Positions 1-5,711 of a stretch of DNA of 5,711 nt are shown here, piece after piece. The first letter of the stretch is position 1; every line of letters begins with the position of its first letter. The notes under the pieces were generated by a model. The model was given only the letters and a program-made list of their open reading frames with translations. It was not told the origin of the DNA and ran no database searches. Source of the DNA: a virus (taxonomy: Duplodnaviria; Heunggongvirae; Uroviricota; Caudoviricetes). Made by a program: the position numbers and the translations under genes. The DNA is taken from positions 1-5,711 of the IMG/VR virus record IMGVR_UViG_2547132272_000002. One strand, given 5' to 3'.

Positions 1-371
1 TCGCCGCAGCGGTTTATCCCCACCCGGAACGCTCGCGGCTCCGTAATGGTGATGGTGTAGCCCAGGCTGGCGGCAAGGCTCTTAAAGTAAGGGATTGACA
101 GCCCACCTGTGGCGGCCATCCTGACCAGGATGTTCTGCCGCCGCTCCTGTTGTGTTGCTCCTTCACGGGGGACAATGCCGTACACGCGCTCCCAGTCGGA
201 CAGCGTCATCGATGCCTGCAATGGGGTGATTTGTGCCAGAACGCTTGCCGCTGATGCCTTCACGGCCTCCATGACGTCAGCCTCGGCGGTCAGCTCCGCG
301 GAAATATATTTCCCGTTCTGGTCATAACTGACAGGCGGCAGCATGGCGCGAAATAAATCGACCATATTCAT
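1..371 (-). CDS. Mu gp48-like tail/baseplate protein (DUF2313-type), N-terminal 123 codons; 3' end lies beyond the window
   Basis: Manual minus-strand translation from ATG at 371..369 is open to position 1 with no stop: MNMVDLFRAMLPPVSYDQNGKYISAELTAEADVMEAVKASAASVLAQITPLQASMTLSDWERVYGIVPREGATQQERRQNILVRMAATGGLSIPYFKSLAASLGYTITITEPRAFRVGINRCG. Not in the ORF track because it is truncated. Start lies 3 nt after the baseplate J stop (TGATTCATG) with a GAGGGG Shine-Dalgarno 6 nt upstream. Position directly downstream of the J-like gene matches Mu gene order. Confidence 0.65.
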   Translation of the reverse strand, partial: MNMVDLFRAMLPPVSYDQNGKYISAELTAEADVMEAVKASAASVLAQITPLQASMTLSDWERVYGIVPREGATQQERRQNILVRMAATGGLSIPYFKSLAASLGYTITITEPRAFRVGINRCG

Positions 372-374
372 GAA

Positions 375-1454
375 TCACCCCTCACGCGGAAAAGGCTGAA
401 TATCAATATTTCCCGGGCGCAGCCATTCCCACGTTGACGCGTTAATAATGGCTTTTACATTGTCTGCTGGCGTAATGATTCGCCGGTCACTGACACCGGA
501 AATTAATGAAATCTGGGTTTCCAGTTGTGAAATAATTAATTCCTGCCCCGGCTCCAGTCGGTTCATAAAATCCGTGATAACGTCAGTTATCTGCGGTTTT
601 ATCTGCTCAACGGTCAGGCCGCTGGTTTTTACCCGAACAACGAAATCAACGGCTTTTTTCGTCGGGGCCAGTACCATTGTGTCCTTCGCTGTGACCGGGC
701 GGACTTCCTCAATATGCGCCAGCACGGCATTAATCAGTTCCTGCGAAGGGAGGTCATTGGCTGACGTAATGGCCACATCAACCGTCCCCAGCCCACGACG
801 TAACGGCTCCACATACGCAGACGTAACGCCATCCACTTCCAGCGCCCAGCGTTTGTAATCATATTTGTTACCGCCAGCGGGCGGCCTGCGCAGAATATCC
901 AGATAACGCGCCAGCAGGTCGGCGTCGCTTTCCCTGTCCGTTCCGCCGGTCAGGGATTTAATCGTCACCGTGCTGTTGATGCCTTCCGGCGGGCTGACCA
1001 GCGTTGCCGTCTGCGTCGTGGATGCATTCGTCTGTGCACCCGTGGCGGTGCTTTTTACCGTCACCTCCGCACTGCCTTCATCACCGATGGTGCAGTCTGC
1101 TGTGGTGGCCACGCTGACACCTTCACCACGAATTTCCGCACCAGCTGGCAGCGTCTTACCGGGTGTGCCGGTAATCACCACCGGACCGGATGAGGCTGTT
1201 GCTTTTTTACGAAAAACATTGCGCGTGCGACAGTGCAGCTCCAGATATTCAGGGTCTGCCGTGTCAGGGAACACCTGACGGAGTATCCACCCCTGATGCA
1301 TATACAGCCCGTCCGCCACGCCGGATACGGCACTGGCACGAATGCGGTAATCGCTGTCAGCGCCGGTGTCGATGGTTTCTCCCGGCAGGGCGTTAGCGAT
1401 ATCACGTAGCTGGCGTTCTGTGTTTTCAGCAACGCCCGGAACAGGAAACGGCAT
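375..1454 (-). CDS. Baseplate J-like protein (Mu gp47 family)
   Basis: 359-aa ORF. Size and sequence character fit the baseplate J family and it sits between the gp46-like and gp48-like genes as in Mu. GAGGA Shine-Dalgarno 7 nt upstream of the ATG; ATG overlaps the upstream gene's TAA by 1 nt (TAATG). Confidence 0.8.
   Translation of the reverse strand: MPFPVPGVAENTERQLRDIANALPGETIDTGADSDYRIRASAVSGVADGLYMHQGWILRQVFPDTADPEYLELHCRTRNVFRKKATASSGPVVITGTPGKTLPAGAEIRGEGVSVATTADCTIGDEGSAEVTVKSTATGAQTNASTTQTATLVSPPEGINSTVTIKSLTGGTDRESDADLLARYLDILRRPPAGGNKYDYKRWALEVDGVTSAYVEPLRRGLGTVDVAITSANDLPSQELINAVLAHIEEVRPVTAKDTMVLAPTKKAVDFVVRVKTSGLTVEQIKPQITDVITDFMNRLEPGQELIISQLETQISLISGVSDRRIITPADNVKAIINASTWEWLRPGNIDIQPFPREG
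378..383 (-). promoter_or_regulatory. Shine-Dalgarno (GAGGGG) for the gp48-like gene
   Basis: Minus-strand GTGAGGGGTGATTCATG: GAGGGG sits 6 nt upstream of ATG 371..369, overlapping the end of the J-like gene. Confidence 0.45.
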
Positions 1455-1804
1455 TACATAATCCTCACAGGGTGTTCAAACGTCTGCAGTGTGCCCGCGT
1501 TATCCGTGACGGTGATTAACAGCAACAGCCAGCCGCGCTGACCCGCTTTCGTGTCAACGGTAATGGATTTTGCCCGCCCGTCATCAAGCAGGGGCTGAAG
1601 TGCCTGGCTGGCATACTGCGCCGCCAGCCTGTGAACACGGGAAACGTCTTTTTCCCGCTTCAGTTCGTGCAGGCGTGACCCCAGCGACGCATCCGCCCAG
1701 TAACTGCCAAGCGGTGTCGCCAGTCGCAGATAAACCGCGTTATGGAGTGTATAAATCCGGCGGCGTTCGTAGTCGCCGGTTGCAGGTGAAATCGTCTGGT
1801 CCAT
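1454..1804 (-). CDS. Small baseplate protein, Mu gp46-like (occupies the gpW/gp25-type slot between spike and baseplate J)
   Basis: 116-aa ORF (MDQTISPATGDYERRRIYTLHNAV...). Assignment is mainly by size and conserved position. Next in-frame upstream stop is at 1864..1862 and no alternative ATG or GTG lies between, so ATG 1804..1802 is the likely start despite a weak Shine-Dalgarno and hairpin occlusion. Confidence 0.6.
   Translation of the reverse strand: MDQTISPATGDYERRRIYTLHNAVYLRLATPLGSYWADASLGSRLHELKREKDVSRVHRLAAQYASQALQPLLDDGRAKSITVDTKAGQRGWLLLLITVTDNAGTLQTFEHPVRIM
1462..1466 (-). promoter_or_regulatory. Shine-Dalgarno (GAGGA) for the baseplate J-like gene
   Basis: Minus-strand CTGTGAGGATTATGTAATG: GAGGA sits 7 nt upstream of ATG 1454..1452, inside the 3' end of the gp46-like gene. 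Confidence 0.5.
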
Positions 1805-1825
1805 GCCGCCAGTCTGGCAGCATGG
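1801..1825 (-). promoter_or_regulatory. mRNA stem-loop (10-bp stem, 5-nt loop) that includes the gp46-like start codon
   Basis: Inverted repeat ccatgccgcc (1801..1810) / ctggcagcatgg-side arm (1816..1825) around loop 1811..1815. On the sense (minus-strand) transcript, CCAUGCUGCC-AGACU-GGCGGCAUGG pairs fully, including one G-U wobble that would be a C-A mismatch on the opposite strand. The AUG at 1804..1802 lies in the 3' arm. Confidence 0.4.
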
Positions 1826-1857
1826 ACAGGTCAGAATCAGGTGAGGGTGTTCAGCAC

Positions 1858-2511
1858 TTAATTATGCGGCAGGCCAGATATGCCGTGAGGGGTATCGTGT
1901 TTATGCGTTCCGATTTTAACGCCATTAATGGTGACGTCAACGGAGGTAATCACTCCACCCACATGGTTGATATCGCCTTCAAAGGTGGCAGTGTATCCCT
2001 TGCCCCCACTGATGGCCATGCCACCGTTGCCGGTGATTTTGCCTTCCACCGTCAGCTTGTCACTGGCTGTCAGTAACGGTGTTGTGAATGCGGCGCTTTC
2101 CTCTGCCTCAACCTCATAGCGTTTGCATTTCACCCGGTAAACGTCACAGTCCGTTTCAACAACCCGCCCGCGTTTCAGTACGATTTTCGCGCCTTCATCG
2201 GTATACAGGGCCACCTCGCCGGGCTTCAGTTCCGTCAGGCGATATGCGCCGTGCTCTGTGGCCACGACGACGGTATGGGATGTATTGCCATTCAGCGGAA
2301 CGGCAATACCCATTGAGCCGGGCGGCGGGGATGTGGTGAGGCCGTAATGCTGAAAATACTCCGCACCGTCCAGCTGTTCGCCTGCCAGCCCGTTAAGCTG
2401 AAGCAACTGTACTTTGGTCGAACTGTCCACCGTACCGGTCACCACCCTGAACGCCTGGCGAACGGCGGCTAGTGCCTGCTGTACGCGCTGATTAACCTTG
2501 TCCCACATCAT
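1858..2511 (-). CDS. Baseplate assembly protein V / central spike (Mu gp45-like)
   Basis: 217-aa ORF with Gly-rich beta-strand-like repeats (GNGGMAISGGKGYTATFEGDINHVGGVITSVDVTINGVKIG) and a His-containing tip (THKHDTPHG), typical of gpV-type spikes. Two tandem ATGs (2511..2509 and 2508..2506); the GGGAG Shine-Dalgarno at 2518..2514 is spaced better for the second, so the true start may be 2508. Overlaps the upstream gene stop (ATGA/TGATG). Confidence 0.8.
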   Translation of the reverse strand: MMWDKVNQRVQQALAAVRQAFRVVTGTVDSSTKVQLLQLNGLAGEQLDGAEYFQHYGLTTSPPPGSMGIAVPLNGNTSHTVVVATEHGAYRLTELKPGEVALYTDEGAKIVLKRGRVVETDCDVYRVKCKRYEVEAEESAAFTTPLLTASDKLTVEGKITGNGGMAISGGKGYTATFEGDINHVGGVITSVDVTINGVKIGTHKHDTPHGISGLPHN

Positions 2512-3719
2512 TTCTCCCAGACCTTAACAATAGCGACCTCTTTTTTCTTTTTGCCCCTGCGGTGATGGCGTTTCTTCTCGCGCGGGAAGGCGTCAGGTAT
2601 CCACACGCCGTCCTCCTTAAAGCGGAGCCGGGTTGTCTTCCCGTTACGGCCTCCGCTGAACTCACGCCCCATCAGGAAAAAGATGGCGTCGATGCCGTGG
2701 GGTTCGCTGACAATCCGCACACGCTGCCCGGGCTGCCACAGGACACCGTCCGCCGTGCGATGACCTGCAACCAGTGCGACGATATCCAGCCCCGACAGGC
2801 GGGCATCACTCATCATTTTTTTGGCGCGCCAGTTCACCTGCTCCATGTTACTGGTGTCGCCCTGGGTGATTATCTGCGGGCGGTAATAATCCACGGTGGG
2901 GTCGGTGGCCACGGCTTTCATGTTGTGAATGCCTGTCTGTCCATTATCCGTATTACCGCTGTCCTGCCCGGATAATGTGCGCACGCTGCCGTCCTCGTTC
3001 CAGATGTCCAGTGGCACCACGGCCACCTGTTTCTTGCTGTCTGCGCGGCGGGCGTGGCTCTGGGCCAGCACCGTCAGCTCGGAGAAACAGCCGTTAATGG
3101 ACCGGGTATCGTCCAGCTCCATCACGTTGTTCCCGGTGCCGTCCAGCTTCATAATCAGCGTGTCCACCGGCGTGGTGGTGTAGTCAGGGCCACCCACAAC
3201 CAGCGTCCCGTCAGGCTCAAACCACGGCCATAAGCCGCGACCGGCGGCAGCTTTAGCCAGTGCATCCCACGCACGCATCCCCGGCTCTATAACAACCTTG
3301 TCATTACGTGACACACCGGACGCCTGAATACGGATGCGCTGTATCCCCAGTGGTCTGACAATCCTGTCGATGACCTCGTCCAGTGTCAGCTGGTTGGCGC
3401 TGAACACCGGCGCGGCACAGTCCACCAGGATGGCGGCATCATCACGCCCGGACAGGGTCAGTGTGCAGTTCTGACGGGATACACTGCGGCGCACGCTGTC
3501 CACGCGACCACTGAGCACCGTCTCGTCTCCCACCTGCAACCGGACCGGCGCACCCCGGACGATATCCGCCGGGAACACCTTTTCAGGCAGTCCCAGCTGA
3601 AGCTGCCAGCCGTCGGCGGCTTTCAGGAAATCGCTGTCAATACGATAACTGCTCCAGTCAGAATGCGACCTTCCGGCAATGACCAGGCTGATTTTGTCGT
3701 CGTTATTTTGCATAGGCAT
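2508..3719 (-). CDS. Baseplate hub / tail protein, Mu P (gp44)-like, phage late control gene D family
   Basis: 403-aa ORF directly downstream of the N-like gene and upstream of the spike, as in Mu. Start is ambiguous between ATG 3719 and ATG 3713 (MPMQ...); GGTGA Shine-Dalgarno at 3727..3723. Overlaps the 3' end of the N gene by 17 nt in a different frame. Confidence 0.75.
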   Translation of the reverse strand: MPMQNNDDKISLVIAGRSHSDWSSYRIDSDFLKAADGWQLQLGLPEKVFPADIVRGAPVRLQVGDETVLSGRVDSVRRSVSRQNCTLTLSGRDDAAILVDCAAPVFSANQLTLDEVIDRIVRPLGIQRIRIQASGVSRNDKVVIEPGMRAWDALAKAAAGRGLWPWFEPDGTLVVGGPDYTTTPVDTLIMKLDGTGNNVMELDDTRSINGCFSELTVLAQSHARRADSKKQVAVVPLDIWNEDGSVRTLSGQDSGNTDNGQTGIHNMKAVATDPTVDYYRPQIITQGDTSNMEQVNWRAKKMMSDARLSGLDIVALVAGHRTADGVLWQPGQRVRIVSEPHGIDAIFFLMGREFSGGRNGKTTRLRFKEDGVWIPDAFPREKKRHHRRGKKKKEVAIVKVWEK

Positions 3720-5052
3720 TAATCACCATCCCGGCGGTTATGTTGTTCGGGTCACGCAGCTGCGGGTTCAGACGTTGCAGCTCTGCCGCACGGCTGTAAT
3801 CACCGTACCACTGCCACGCCAGCAACAGCAGACAGCTGTCCGCCTGCACCTGTTTCTGCGTCAGCGGTGGGCGGCGAGACAGAACCAGCAGGCCGACATC
3901 CTGCACGGATGCCGCCACGTTCTTCATGCTCTGAATGATTTCCGGGTACATCAGCCCCAGCGGTGATGCGGTTTCGGTTATCCGTTCGCGTTCGCCTTCA
4001 TAGCGTTCACGGAACAGCGTGATGGCTGCCTGTAAGCGGGTGCGCACATCCCCGACCAGTCGCCCGATATCCGCCGGTATAAGCTGCTCTGACTGGGCCT
4101 CATCTGACAGTATCGCCGTCGCCACGCTGGCCAGCTCTGAGGCTGCCAGAACCGCATATGCCGCTTTCACGTCCTGCACGTCTTCCACGGACGCATCCGG
4201 CGGAAGTGCCACAGACGGCGTTTTATCACCGCTGACCAGTGCGACCGGCAGCGCGACCAGCTCATCCATATCTGCCATCACCTCATTCCAGCAGGTCATC
4301 ACGGTCGCAGAACTGGCGACGCTGTCTTCTCCGGTCAGTCCGGTCGTGGTGGCGGAATCAGTACGCTCCAGCACCGGCACCGCGTGCCCGACATCTGATG
4401 AGTGGATTTCCAGCACCTCTGCCAGCCCGCCGATAAACTTTCCGGGTTCGCTGGCCAGCGACATCATATTGTCGATGGATGAGAGAAAATCGCTTTTGAA
4501 CGTCAGCAGGGTATTTACCAGCGTGGCGCGTACCGTCTGGATTTTTTTAATCACGCTGTTAATGGTCTTTAAAGGGGCCGTAACAGCGTCAAATAATTCG
4601 CTTAACTGTGCCAGTAACTTATCCAGTTCTTCAAATAACTGCTGTGCAAACAGCTCCGGTAACGGAGTGCTGAACAACGCGCTGCCGGTGCGGTTCTCCA
4701 GAAAACTCATGTCGATGGTGCAGCTGTCCGGGCTTTCTGCGTCATGGCGGATGCTGTAGCCGGTCACAATCACCGACGGTACGGAGCCATAAACCGGGTG
4801 AATCAGCTCACCATCACCGCCTTTATCCAGGGCGGCTATCAGCTTTTCAAGTTTATATTCGTAATATTCCCCCCACAGGAACGCCGTCATGCGGAACGGT
4901 CGCGCCTTGCGTCCGAGGTCGTGCAAATCTGCCCCGTCAACAAACGGGTATTCATAGACCGCATGGTCGCGGCTGATTTGCTCATCCGTGTTCAGTACAT
5001 CAAACTGCACACCGCGAAAGGAAGCGTTTTGCAGGTTTTCAGCCCAGCCCAT
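3703..5052 (-). CDS. DNA circularization protein N (Mu gp43-like)
   Basis: 449-aa ORF whose N-terminal region (MGWAENLQNASFRGVQFDVLNTDEQISRDHAVYEYPFVDGADLHDLGRKARPF...) resembles the DNA circularization N-terminal domain family. Strong GGAGG Shine-Dalgarno at 5066..5062, 9 nt upstream of the ATG. ATG overlaps the upstream stop by 1 nt (TGATG). Lies between tape measure and hub as in Mu. Confidence 0.8.
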   Translation of the reverse strand: MGWAENLQNASFRGVQFDVLNTDEQISRDHAVYEYPFVDGADLHDLGRKARPFRMTAFLWGEYYEYKLEKLIAALDKGGDGELIHPVYGSVPSVIVTGYSIRHDAESPDSCTIDMSFLENRTGSALFSTPLPELFAQQLFEELDKLLAQLSELFDAVTAPLKTINSVIKKIQTVRATLVNTLLTFKSDFLSSIDNMMSLASEPGKFIGGLAEVLEIHSSDVGHAVPVLERTDSATTTGLTGEDSVASSATVMTCWNEVMADMDELVALPVALVSGDKTPSVALPPDASVEDVQDVKAAYAVLAASELASVATAILSDEAQSEQLIPADIGRLVGDVRTRLQAAITLFRERYEGERERITETASPLGLMYPEIIQSMKNVAASVQDVGLLVLSRRPPLTQKQVQADSCLLLLAWQWYGDYSRAAELQRLNPQLRDPNNITAGMVINAYAK

Positions 5053-5711
5053 CAGTAAGTTCCTCCCGTGCCTCTGTTACCGTCCTGAAGGTTGTATTTA
5101 TTCACTGCTTCCGCCACGACCTGACCATCGAGCACCAGTTGTGTGGTGAAATTAATGGGGCTGGCAGGTGGTCCCCAGTGCGTGAGGTATTCCGGCTGGG
5201 TGATGCGTCCGGCTTGCGTTGATGCTGATTCAGGCGTTGTGTTTCCTGCGGCTTTGTTGACCTGCGCCGGTGATGGCAGGGCATCAGCTGCGGCTTTTTT
5301 CCTGTCTTCCTCCCAGCGCCTCAACCACTCCTCGTTTTCGGTGGAGTAGCCTTCCCCAAACTGCCACCACGGCTGGTATTTTTTACGGGCGGCGTCGATG
5401 ATTTCCTGGGGGTATCGGGCACGGATGCGCTTCCAGCGTTCTTCGCTTCCTTCGACGGCGGCGTCTTCTTCCGGGCTGGTTGCGGTGGCCAGTGCCGTAA
5501 CGGTGCCACCGAAAGAAAGCAGGCTACCGGCAATGCCGGGGATTTTAAATCCTTTGCCTTTTTTGACCGTGTTTTCAATGACATCACCGACAACCTCGCC
5601 AGCCTTGCCACCGGGTTTACCCCCGGTCAGGATTTTGATCCCGGCCCATGTCAGAGCCGCTGCGGTCATCGCTTCAATGGCGGGGGGGGGGGGGGCGCCA
5701 CCCCCCGCGCC
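5052..5711 (-). CDS. Tail tape measure protein, C-terminal segment (5' end outside the window)
   Basis: Minus-strand frame is open from the window edge (5711) to TGA at 5054..5052; the ORF-track Met at 5669 is probably internal. Gly/Ala/Lys-rich sequence (GIKILTGGKPGGKAGEVVGDV..., ...NLQDGNRGTGGTY) and position immediately upstream of the N gene fit a tape-measure C-terminus. The outermost 30 nt are homopolymeric G/C and may be artefactual. Confidence 0.55.
   Translation of the reverse strand, partial: GAGGGAPPPPAIEAMTAAALTWAGIKILTGGKPGGKAGEVVGDVIENTVKKGKGFKIPGIAGSLLSFGGTVTALATATSPEEDAAVEGSEERWKRIRARYPQEIIDAARKKYQPWWQFGEGYSTENEEWLRRWEEDRKKAAADALPSPAQVNKAAGNTTPESASTQAGRITQPEYLTHWGPPASPINFTTQLVLDGQVVAEAVNKYNLQDGNRGTGGTY
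5062..5066 (-). promoter_or_regulatory. Shine-Dalgarno (GGAGG) for the N-like gene
   Basis: Minus-strand GGGAGGAACTTACTGATG: GGAGG sits 9 nt upstream of ATG 5052..5050. Confidence 0.5.
5682..5706. repeat. Homopolymer block: G14 (5682..5695), then cgcca, then C6 (5701..5706), at the 3' window edge
   Basis: Read directly from the sequence. On the coding strand the G-run becomes C14 and would translate as a proline run (PPPP) inside the tape-measure frame. Confidence 0.9.

Follow-up and report, generated by a model that had tools for sequence, protein, structure and literature searches.

The gp45/gp46 spacer of Mu-like phages: a conserved hairpin over the gp46 start codon within a predicted late promoter

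A 5,711-nucleotide stretch of Caudoviricetes DNA (positions 1 to 5,711 of the IMG/VR record IMGVR_UViG_2547132272_000002; in its full length referred to as the window) carries part of a Mu-type tail and baseplate module, with all genes on the minus strand according to its open reading frames (ORFs) and their Pfam matches. Between the gp45-like spike gene and the gp46-like baseplate wedge gene of this module lies a spacer of 53 nt (1805-1857), which is the subject of this study. The hairpin at this junction, in which the start codon of gp46 is buried, forms in the sense-strand RNA and is under selection. Judging by its sequence, the identification of the spacer as a Mor/C-type late promoter is close to established. 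Our preferred reading, which we hold with moderate confidence, is that promoter and hairpin together form a compact boundary between two transcription units, in which an activator-dependent late promoter is combined with a fold-back hairpin that silences read-through RNA.

A hairpin over the gp46 start codon

The gp45-like gene (spike or baseplate assembly protein V; 1858..2511, minus strand; Pfam Phage_Mu_Gp45 at E=9e-24 and annotation by the Prokaryotic Genome Annotation Pipeline in relatives) ends with the stop codon TAA at 1860..1858. The gp46-like gene, which encodes 116 amino acids (1454..1804, minus strand; Pfam GP46 at E=5e-19), starts with ATG at 1804..1802. All remaining junctions in the window overlap (by 1, 4, 17 and 1 nt), so that the spacer is, as an earlier note on this DNA had stated, the only junction without overlap.

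Minus-strand RNA from this junction folds into a hairpin (1799..1827), which we recognize by its folding energy relative to shuffles, its covariation and its strand asymmetry. Its 5' arm, GUCCAUGCUGCCA (1827..1815), leads into the loop GAC (1814..1812), which is followed by the 3' arm, UGGCGGCAUGGAC (1811..1799); this 3' arm holds the AUG (1804..1802) as well as the second codon, GAC. The stem has 13 bp, including one U.G pair (1819/1807), and encloses a loop of 3 nt; if the closing A-U pair is left open, the count becomes 12 bp with a loop of 5 nt. The earlier note had described a 10-bp stem with a 5-nt loop and had correctly placed the AUG in the 3' arm, but the stem is longer than it assumed. 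For the 29 nt from 1827 to 1799, the folding energy is -23.8 kcal/mol, compared to -8.6 +/- 2.4 kcal/mol for 200 dinucleotide shuffles (z = -6.4; 0/200 as stable). In a 91-nt context, for which a comparison with shuffled controls had been proposed, the sense strand folds better than its shuffles (z = -4.2), versus z = -0.8 for the antisense strand. This agrees with the earlier suggestion that the pairing is specific to the sense strand.

Upstream of the gp46 AUG, the sequence CUGGCGGC contains no usable Shine-Dalgarno (SD) sequence, in line with the poor SD noted before. Downstream, the stem is followed by CAGACGAUUUCA and not by a U-tract, and a terminator scan made no call at 1799-1860. We therefore rejected an intrinsic (Rho-independent) terminator, as the earlier note had done. 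An RNase III site seems improbable, as a 13-bp stem is short for this enzyme. Rfam covariance models gave no match up to E=10 on either strand between 1400 and 2300. An out-of-frame AUG in the 5' arm (1823..1821, minus strand) opens a short ORF of approximately 27 codons, counted by eye; this AUG is present and conserved because the arm pairs with CAUGG. An N-terminal extension of gp46 could be ruled out, since homologues have in-frame stops at -12, -18 and -27.

For comparison, we collected gp46 loci from 54 bacterial species and 80 viral contigs, and from the phages SuMu, Mannheimia 3927AP2 and Klebsiella ST405-OXA48phi1.1. The spacer is invariant among E. coli prophages (59 genomes, 91-97% identity), and Enterobacterales, Cupriavidus, Burkholderia, Paludibacterium and Neisseria all keep the stem although its sequence is quite different among them. 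When 21 distinct homologous junctions were aligned without gaps, pairing was found in 91.9% of the cells, a value that none of 500 shuffles reached and that compares with 27-41% for slid controls. Compensatory changes, which had been proposed as a check, are found in 8 of the 13 stem pairs, and they extend to the start codon: gp46 of Klebsiella ST405-OXA48phi1.1 (29777-29805 region) has GUG as its start codon, and in the 5' arm the triplet across from it reads CAC in place of CAU. A Trabulsiella locus has CAC opposite AUG, with a C-A mismatch, and looks like an intermediate state. Non-Watson-Crick cells, read on the sense strand, comprise 34 G-U, 11 A-C and 9 other combinations, counted over sequences that are not phylogenetically independent; the excess of G-U over A-C is again what strand-specific pairing of the RNA predicts.

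Promoter signals in the spacer and at other genes of the same phages

The spacer begins, immediately after the gp45 stop codon, with a putative activator box (1840..1857, minus strand), the conserved core of which, GTGCTGAACACCC, is matched exactly at 1857..1845. Within the box, TGA (1853..1851) and TCA (1844..1842), separated by 6 nt, form a dyad that is centered at -43.5 from the A of the gp46 AUG, if this A (1804), the predicted transcription start, is numbered +1. We predict from the sequence that the box is the binding site for the phage's own late activator of the Mor/C family. The linker over the -35 region (1828..1839, minus strand) is C/U-rich and G-poor and, by column statistics, contains no conserved hexamer; there is no -35 consensus, the region reading TGATTC or CTGATT, and a scan with the sigma-70 consensus found no promoter match within the spacer. 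A -10-like hexamer, CAGACT (1811..1816, minus strand), is located at -12..-7 and spans the loop together with the last bases of the 5' arm and the first one of the 3' arm. It is supported by the conservation of the loop, in which the positions A-N-A-N-T at -11, -9 and -7 are invariant or nearly so (34/34, 31/34 and 34/34), and by a positional count. When 74 unique spacers were compared, the A of an nAnnnT hexamer fell on -11 in 43 of them, on -12 in 18 and on -13 in 8. These add up to 69/74 (93%), where the background amounts to about 5% at each position; no more than 9 of the 74 have any SD-like sequence. Other hexamers at -12..-7 are GACAAT, GAGAAT and GAAAAT, and SuMu and Mannheimia 3927AP2 have TATCCT and TACCAT, respectively, at exactly this position, although their hairpins differ and are weak. 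The start of transcription would by this geometry fall on the A of the gp46 AUG (1804, minus strand), the seventh nucleotide after the hexamer.

The distance from the box to the start codon is constrained. The motif (G)CTGA(A/C)..C..TCA keeps a fixed distance of 50 +/- 2 nt to the AUG, whereas the AUG can follow the gp45 stop at anything from 48 to 111 nt. Where a spacer has insertions, such as terminators or hairpins resembling uptake signal sequences (USS), they are always upstream of the box. In some lineages, the dyad is extended to palindromes (GCTGAAG-CT-CTTCAGC, GGAAG-TG-CTTCC, TGAAG-CC-CTTCA). The Snodgrassella version is built differently, with the box at -72 from the AUG, a -10 element TAAACT/TATAAA, a GGAG SD sequence and no hairpin. 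Ten Pseudomonas-type loci have another layout, with a GCTGAAAC/GAAAC box at approximately -43, a co-varying G+C-rich hairpin between this box and a CAnnCT hexamer (-14..-8), and an AUG that lies within or close to the loop of another, small hairpin. In SuMu (1400-1450) and Mannheimia 3927AP2 (1400-1445), the extra sequence between gp45 stop and box is an inverted pair of uptake-signal-like repeats of the ACAAGCGGTC type, and two Neisseria loci have a terminator-like hairpin with a U-run upstream of the box (approximately -101..-61 from the gp46 ATG). The USS-like repeats and the Neisseria hairpin fit a transcription-unit boundary at the gp45/gp46 junction. Ten loci from Betaproteobacteria and metagenome-assembled genomes have no spacer at all and overlap gp45 and gp46 at UGAUG or UAAUG, as Mu does. 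The promoter-plus-hairpin spacer seems to be present or absent as one unit.

The box is not confined to gp46. The E2348/69 relative, a transposable prophage of the Mu-like kind, has the gene of a Mor-family activator directly ahead of its lysis genes, and in E. coli prophages that are 95-97% identical to the window, a gene annotated as "Mor transcription activator family protein" adjoins the lysis genes. Over the 41 kb of E2348/69 sequence that include this prophage, there are just three copies of GTGCTGAACNCCC, always on the coding strand (0.21 expected), upstream of the holin gene, of the protease gene (the gene I equivalent) and of gp46. At identical spacing, these boxes are followed by TACCCT (lysis), CATCAT (protease) and CAGACT (gp46). 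In SuMu, GTGGAARNNNTTCC is likewise present three times and no more (0.01 expected), once each at the amidase, protease and gp46 genes, with TAAAGT, TATTCT and TATCCT 39 nt on, and Klebsiella ST405-OXA48phi1.1 has three copies of CACTGAAGCCCNTCAA at the lysis, protease and gp46 positions. Each of these phages also has a candidate for the activator: gp16 of SuMu matches Pfam Mor (E=3e-7), and the interval from gemA to the lysis genes of Klebsiella ST405-OXA48phi1.1 (MK388859.1) holds an unannotated ORF (8304-8774) that matches Pfam Mor PF08765 with E=4e-7, above the curated cut-off. This ORF is probably the late activator of that phage, missing from the deposited annotation.

The same pairing of box and hexamer is found in nine further viral contigs that have both a gp46 and a protease box. 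The two boxes of one phage agree at 13-18 of 18 positions (shuffle p <= 0.002), and variants of the box (..TCAG, ..TCAA, ..TCAC) are specific to lineages among these contigs. As two distant sites co-vary within a genome, a shared trans-acting factor is predicted. The box-hexamer geometry of the gp46 spacer is thus repeated at the protease gene in the nine contigs, where the protease ATG follows the hexamer by 6-7 nt, and at gp46 in SuMu and the Mannheimia phage, where the hairpins are different. A protease promoter with this spacing, and with the annotated ATG 6-8 nt after the hexamer, was seen in the E2348/69 prophage (8778-8834) and in viral contigs. By the same geometry, we predict that the mRNA of the protease/head operon is leaderless, too. 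The hairpin does not travel with the box: the protease and lysis promoters of the same phages have no significant hairpin (z = -1.4, -0.1 and +0.2), compared to -4 to -6 for gp46 promoters. In E2348/69, a terminator-like hairpin precedes the protease promoter, and a G+C-rich inverted repeat, noticed by eye, stands before the lysis promoter.

Several other readings of the box were considered and rejected. Sigma-70, sigma-E, CRP-like and lambda/P22 boxB sites do not fit in spacing or sequence (by eye, and for sigma-70 by scan), and the box also occurs in hosts that are not known to have CRP. The complementarity of the box to 16S rRNA extends over a 7-mer only. Frameshifting or a read-through stop is not compatible with the frame of the box UGA relative to gp45, which varies between loci (+1, +2, 0), and an upstream ORF was rejected because no canonical start leads into this UGA. 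A 50-nt bypass like that of T4 gene 60 lacks matched take-off and landing codons as well as an ORF that enters the UGA in a constant frame. Outside the spacer, a sigma-70 match with 10 of 12 positions, TTGACG-16-TAAAAT, was seen inside the 3' end of gp45 (1913-1940, minus strand), approximately 110 nt upstream of the gp46 AUG. Since the window has four such matches and 2.4 are expected, this one may be due to chance; if active, it would produce a transcript with the whole hairpin.

A proposed boundary between transcription units and the rival explanations

Together, these data suggest a model for late transcription across the gp45/gp46 junction. An activator of the Mor/C family would bind the TGA-N6-TCA dyad 43.5 bp upstream of the gp46 AUG and would enable host RNA polymerase to use the weak -10 element CAGACT at -12..-7 without a -35 element. 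Transcription would start at the A of the gp46 AUG (1804) and yield a leaderless mRNA that covers gp46 as well as the wedge and fibre genes after it. In the hairpin, the 5' arm (-23..-11) would then be promoter spacer DNA, upstream of the start and missing from gp46's own mRNA, so that only transcripts arriving by read-through from the head and tail genes upstream could fold into the hairpin. Such read-through is expected, because a scan of the window predicts no terminator between gp45 and the box. On read-through RNA, the SD-less AUG would be locked in a stem of -24 kcal/mol, leaving gp46 and the genes coupled to it dependent for their translation on gp46's own promoter. The model accounts for several features: there is a gap only at this junction because the promoter sits there, the loop has an invariant A-N-A-N-U because it is the -10 element, and there is no SD sequence because the mRNA would be leaderless if it starts at the AUG, nor could there be one, since the -10 hexamer occupies its position. 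The presence of strong hairpins at the gp46 promoter and not at the protease and lysis promoters, some of which have a terminator-like hairpin upstream, is consistent with a role on read-through RNA. Activator dependence, leaderless translation and the purpose of silencing read-through RNA are all deductions within this model, as is the start site at 1804, from which the leaderless state of the gp46 and protease mRNAs follows. For the hairpin itself, the most likely function is to block gp46 translation on read-through transcripts or else to protect the 3' end of the upstream message; of these, we favor fold-back silencing of gp46 and the genes coupled to it.

The second of these functions takes up an alternative named in the earlier note, a stability element, which is a live rival. 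In its strict form, the hairpin is mainly a 3'-end barrier or terminator substitute for the gp43-45 message, and covers the AUG only as a by-product of squeezing a stem into a 53-nt promoter: RNA that is untranslated past the gp45 stop would be cut or terminated by Rho further downstream, and exonucleases would be halted by the stem. A hairpin of -10 kcal/mol or stronger is found between gp45 stop and gp46 in 71 of 75 spacers, but includes the start codon in only 46 of these 71. Long spacers with terminator-like or USS hairpins upstream of the box, the terminator-like hairpin before the protease promoter, the G+C-rich inverted repeat before the lysis promoter and the C-rich, G-poor RNA of box and linker, which resembles a Rho utilization (rut) site, all agree with this view. 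However, the Neisseria loci have the upstream terminator-like hairpin and a strong AUG-covering hairpin together. A stem of 9-10 bp would fit between -35 and -13, yet Enterobacterales, Burkholderiales and Neisseriales pair the AUG and the second codon, and the compensatory change in the Klebsiella phage involves the start codon itself. As the main role of the hairpin, we consider the barrier unlikely, though by no means far-fetched; barrier and fold-back silencing are in any case compatible, and not exclusive.

The earlier note had proposed that the hairpin could set the translation of gp46 lower than that of the spike. In this model, there is a single polycistronic mRNA without an internal promoter, and the hairpin throttles either de novo initiation or re-initiation at gp46. 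The buried AUG, the missing SD sequence and the failure to find a sigma-70 consensus promoter in the spacer would be expected under this proposal. Against it speak the box triads and the co-variation of the boxes, both of which point to a promoter, the positional -10 signal in 93% of spacers, and the combination of a fixed 50 nt from box to AUG with a variable distance from stop to AUG. Moreover, a stem of -24 kcal/mol without an SD sequence would leave essentially no translation of an essential wedge protein, of which the Mu baseplate needs more copies than of the spike. Nor can a ribosome that terminates on gp45 provide coupling: 31 nt separate the gp45 stop from the stem, a distance at which it would be unable to melt the stem, and at other loci the stop is 48-111 nt from the AUG. 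If transcription starts at the AUG, gp46's own mRNA does not contain the 5' arm at all, and the hairpin would act on read-through RNA only; we judge the proposal improbable. Still less credit goes to the idea that the inverted repeat acts as DNA, as the operator of a dimeric repressor or as a cruciform over -10 and +1. The repeat is centered on the -10 hexamer, and palindromes at promoters are often operators, but the arms have wholly different sequences in different phages while their complementarity is kept, the sense-strand mismatches are mostly G-U, the antisense strand folds no better than its shuffles, and the other two late promoters of the same phages have no such repeat. That the hairpin might be a translational operator or activation target of a phage protein, in the manner of MS2 coat/replicase or Mu Com/mom, with the box as the RNA binding site, we regard as the most improbable of these explanations. 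A conserved motif at a fixed distance 5' of a start-sequestering hairpin with a conserved loop invites this explanation, but the box is also upstream of the lysis and protease genes, which have no such hairpin, the conserved loop positions are the -10 hexamer and are present in hairpin-less versions as well, and the Snodgrassella box is 72 nt from the AUG and accompanied by a normal -10 element and an SD sequence.

Several points also weigh against our own preferred reading, the transcription-unit boundary with fold-back silencing. The start site is deduced from promoter geometry alone, and the -10 hexamer, without T at -12 and without a -35 element, is weak, which makes promoter activity wholly dependent on an activator that is encoded outside the 5.7-kb window. 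In E. coli, GUG is a poor start on leaderless mRNA, and gp46 of the Klebsiella phage uses GUG. It is also hard to see the benefit of silencing an internal AUG that has no SD sequence. Since 14 of the 75 spacers have a stable hairpin that does not cover the start codon, and a further 11 have their strongest hairpin, terminator-like or USS-like, upstream of the box, occlusion of the start codon is not universal, and a more general role, such as that of a 3'-end barrier, could be the common denominator of the spacer hairpins. Finally, the relatedness of the sequences behind the G-U and A-C counts detracts from the strand argument.

If true, the preferred reading recasts a plain-looking intergenic hairpin as a conserved composite control element in the Mu-like tail modules of Enterobacterales, Pasteurellaceae, Burkholderiales and Neisseriales. 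Its predictions are a third late promoter, placed differently from PP of Mu, and leaderless late mRNAs for the protease and gp46 genes. We tentatively extend the reading to a large group of Mu-like phages, in which two of three late units, protease/head and wedge/fibre, would be expressed from leaderless mRNAs, and in which the wedge promoter would be fused with a fold-back hairpin that has the -10 element as its loop, so that the same 53 bp serve as promoter, read-through insulator and end-of-message hairpin. Such an operon boundary without a terminator would make the dosage of wedge and fibre proteins independent of that of hub and spike; this wider claim is possible, but we would not call it probable. 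The analysis also yields a binding-site consensus for Mor/C-family activators other than those of Mu and describes its co-variation between phages, provides a natural system in which to test fold-back silencing of read-through transcripts, and aids the annotation of gp46 starts, promoters and one unannotated activator gene. It may further help in the design of expression constructs for tailocin or phage-tail engineering.

The rest of the window conforms to a Mu-type module. Downstream of gp46, and overlapping it by 1 nt at 1454, is the gp47 gene (Baseplate_J; 375-1454); upstream of gp45 are the genes for the GpP-like hub (2508-3719), the DNA-circularization protein (3703-5052) and the C-terminus of the tape-measure protein (5052-5669), all on the minus strand and assigned by ORF and Pfam. 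In E2348/69 (25000-30100 of the stretch), the Mu-like prophage abuts a truncated eutC, and ISEc13 separately splits eutA, so that the ethanolamine operon is disrupted twice.

Comparison with known systems

The late promoters of Mu are the obvious reference. The Mu late activator C binds a 16-bp imperfect dyad centered at -43.5, and the promoters have a -10 element and no -35 hexamer (Jiang & Howe, PMC2582627). The spacer promoter shares the position of the dyad, a recognizable -10 element and the lack of a -35 element, and, as in Mu, the lysis genes, the protease gene I and the baseplate cluster each have a copy, upstream of the first two and inside the third, with the activator gene just before the lysis genes (PMC2582627). 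The -10 element of Mu Plys is TAGACT, compared to CAGACT here (oligonucleotide sequences in PMC4461284). The boxes themselves differ, with CTGAAC..CCC..TCA here and, by our own reading of the Mu promoter oligonucleotides, a sequence of the CATAACCCC type in Mu (PMC4461284). The location is also different: PP of Mu lies inside gene N (gp43), at 5299-5317 of the Mu stretch that we examined and approximately 390 bp before P, whereas gp45 and gp46 of Mu overlap by 4 nt (7406-7409) and leave no spacer. Here, unlike in Mu, the promoter fills the gap between gp45 and gp46, the predicted start is the AUG, and an RNA hairpin surrounds the promoter. Nor is gene I of Mu, as annotated, leaderless, since it starts approximately 20 nt after the mapped PI start. 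From these positions, the internal tail promoter appears to sit at different places in different Mu-like lineages. Among the papers searched, none describes a promoter at gp46 for SuMu, Mannheimia or any other Mu-like phages.

Leaderless phage mRNAs with a comparable layout are those of lambda cI (from PRM) and P2 gene V, which have no SD sequence and a -10 element that ends 6-7 nt before the AUG, as is the case here; our start is a predicted one, and one relative uses GUG. Fold-back inhibition is reportedly known from IS10 and IS50, where the inverted repeat in read-through RNA is said to hide the start codon while the element's own transcript begins inside the repeat, shielding the transposase gene from host transcription. 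Unlike what is predicted for the spacer promoter, these elements are said to have neither an activator box nor a leaderless start.

The closest described mechanism for a promoter-embedded hairpin of the kind proposed here is that of the T4 genes e (lysozyme), soc, 49 and I-TevI. Their long transcripts fold a stem over the SD sequence or AUG and are poorly translated, while a late promoter is located in the DNA for the 5' strand of the stem, and the late transcripts, which are without this strand, are translated (PMC3014915). The logic in T4 is temporal and separates early from late transcripts, whereas here both classes of transcript are late. The late transcripts of T4 keep a leader with an SD sequence, whereas the promoter-derived mRNA is predicted to be leaderless here, and, unlike in the T4 cases, the -10 element itself forms the loop. 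T4 gene 25, the counterpart of gp46, likewise has a conserved hairpin at its translation start and at an intercistronic junction. That hairpin, however, lies between SD sequence and AUG and enhances initiation by shortening their spacing, whereas the spacer has no SD sequence and its AUG is paired; we accordingly rejected a split ribosome-binding site like those of T4 genes 25 and 38, as no SD sequence precedes the stem and the AUG is part of the stem instead of following it. The spacer thus combines known parts, a Mor/C-type late promoter and a promoter-embedded inhibitory hairpin. What is new is their arrangement, in which the -10 hexamer is the loop, the predicted start is the AUG, and an operon boundary is formed without a terminator.

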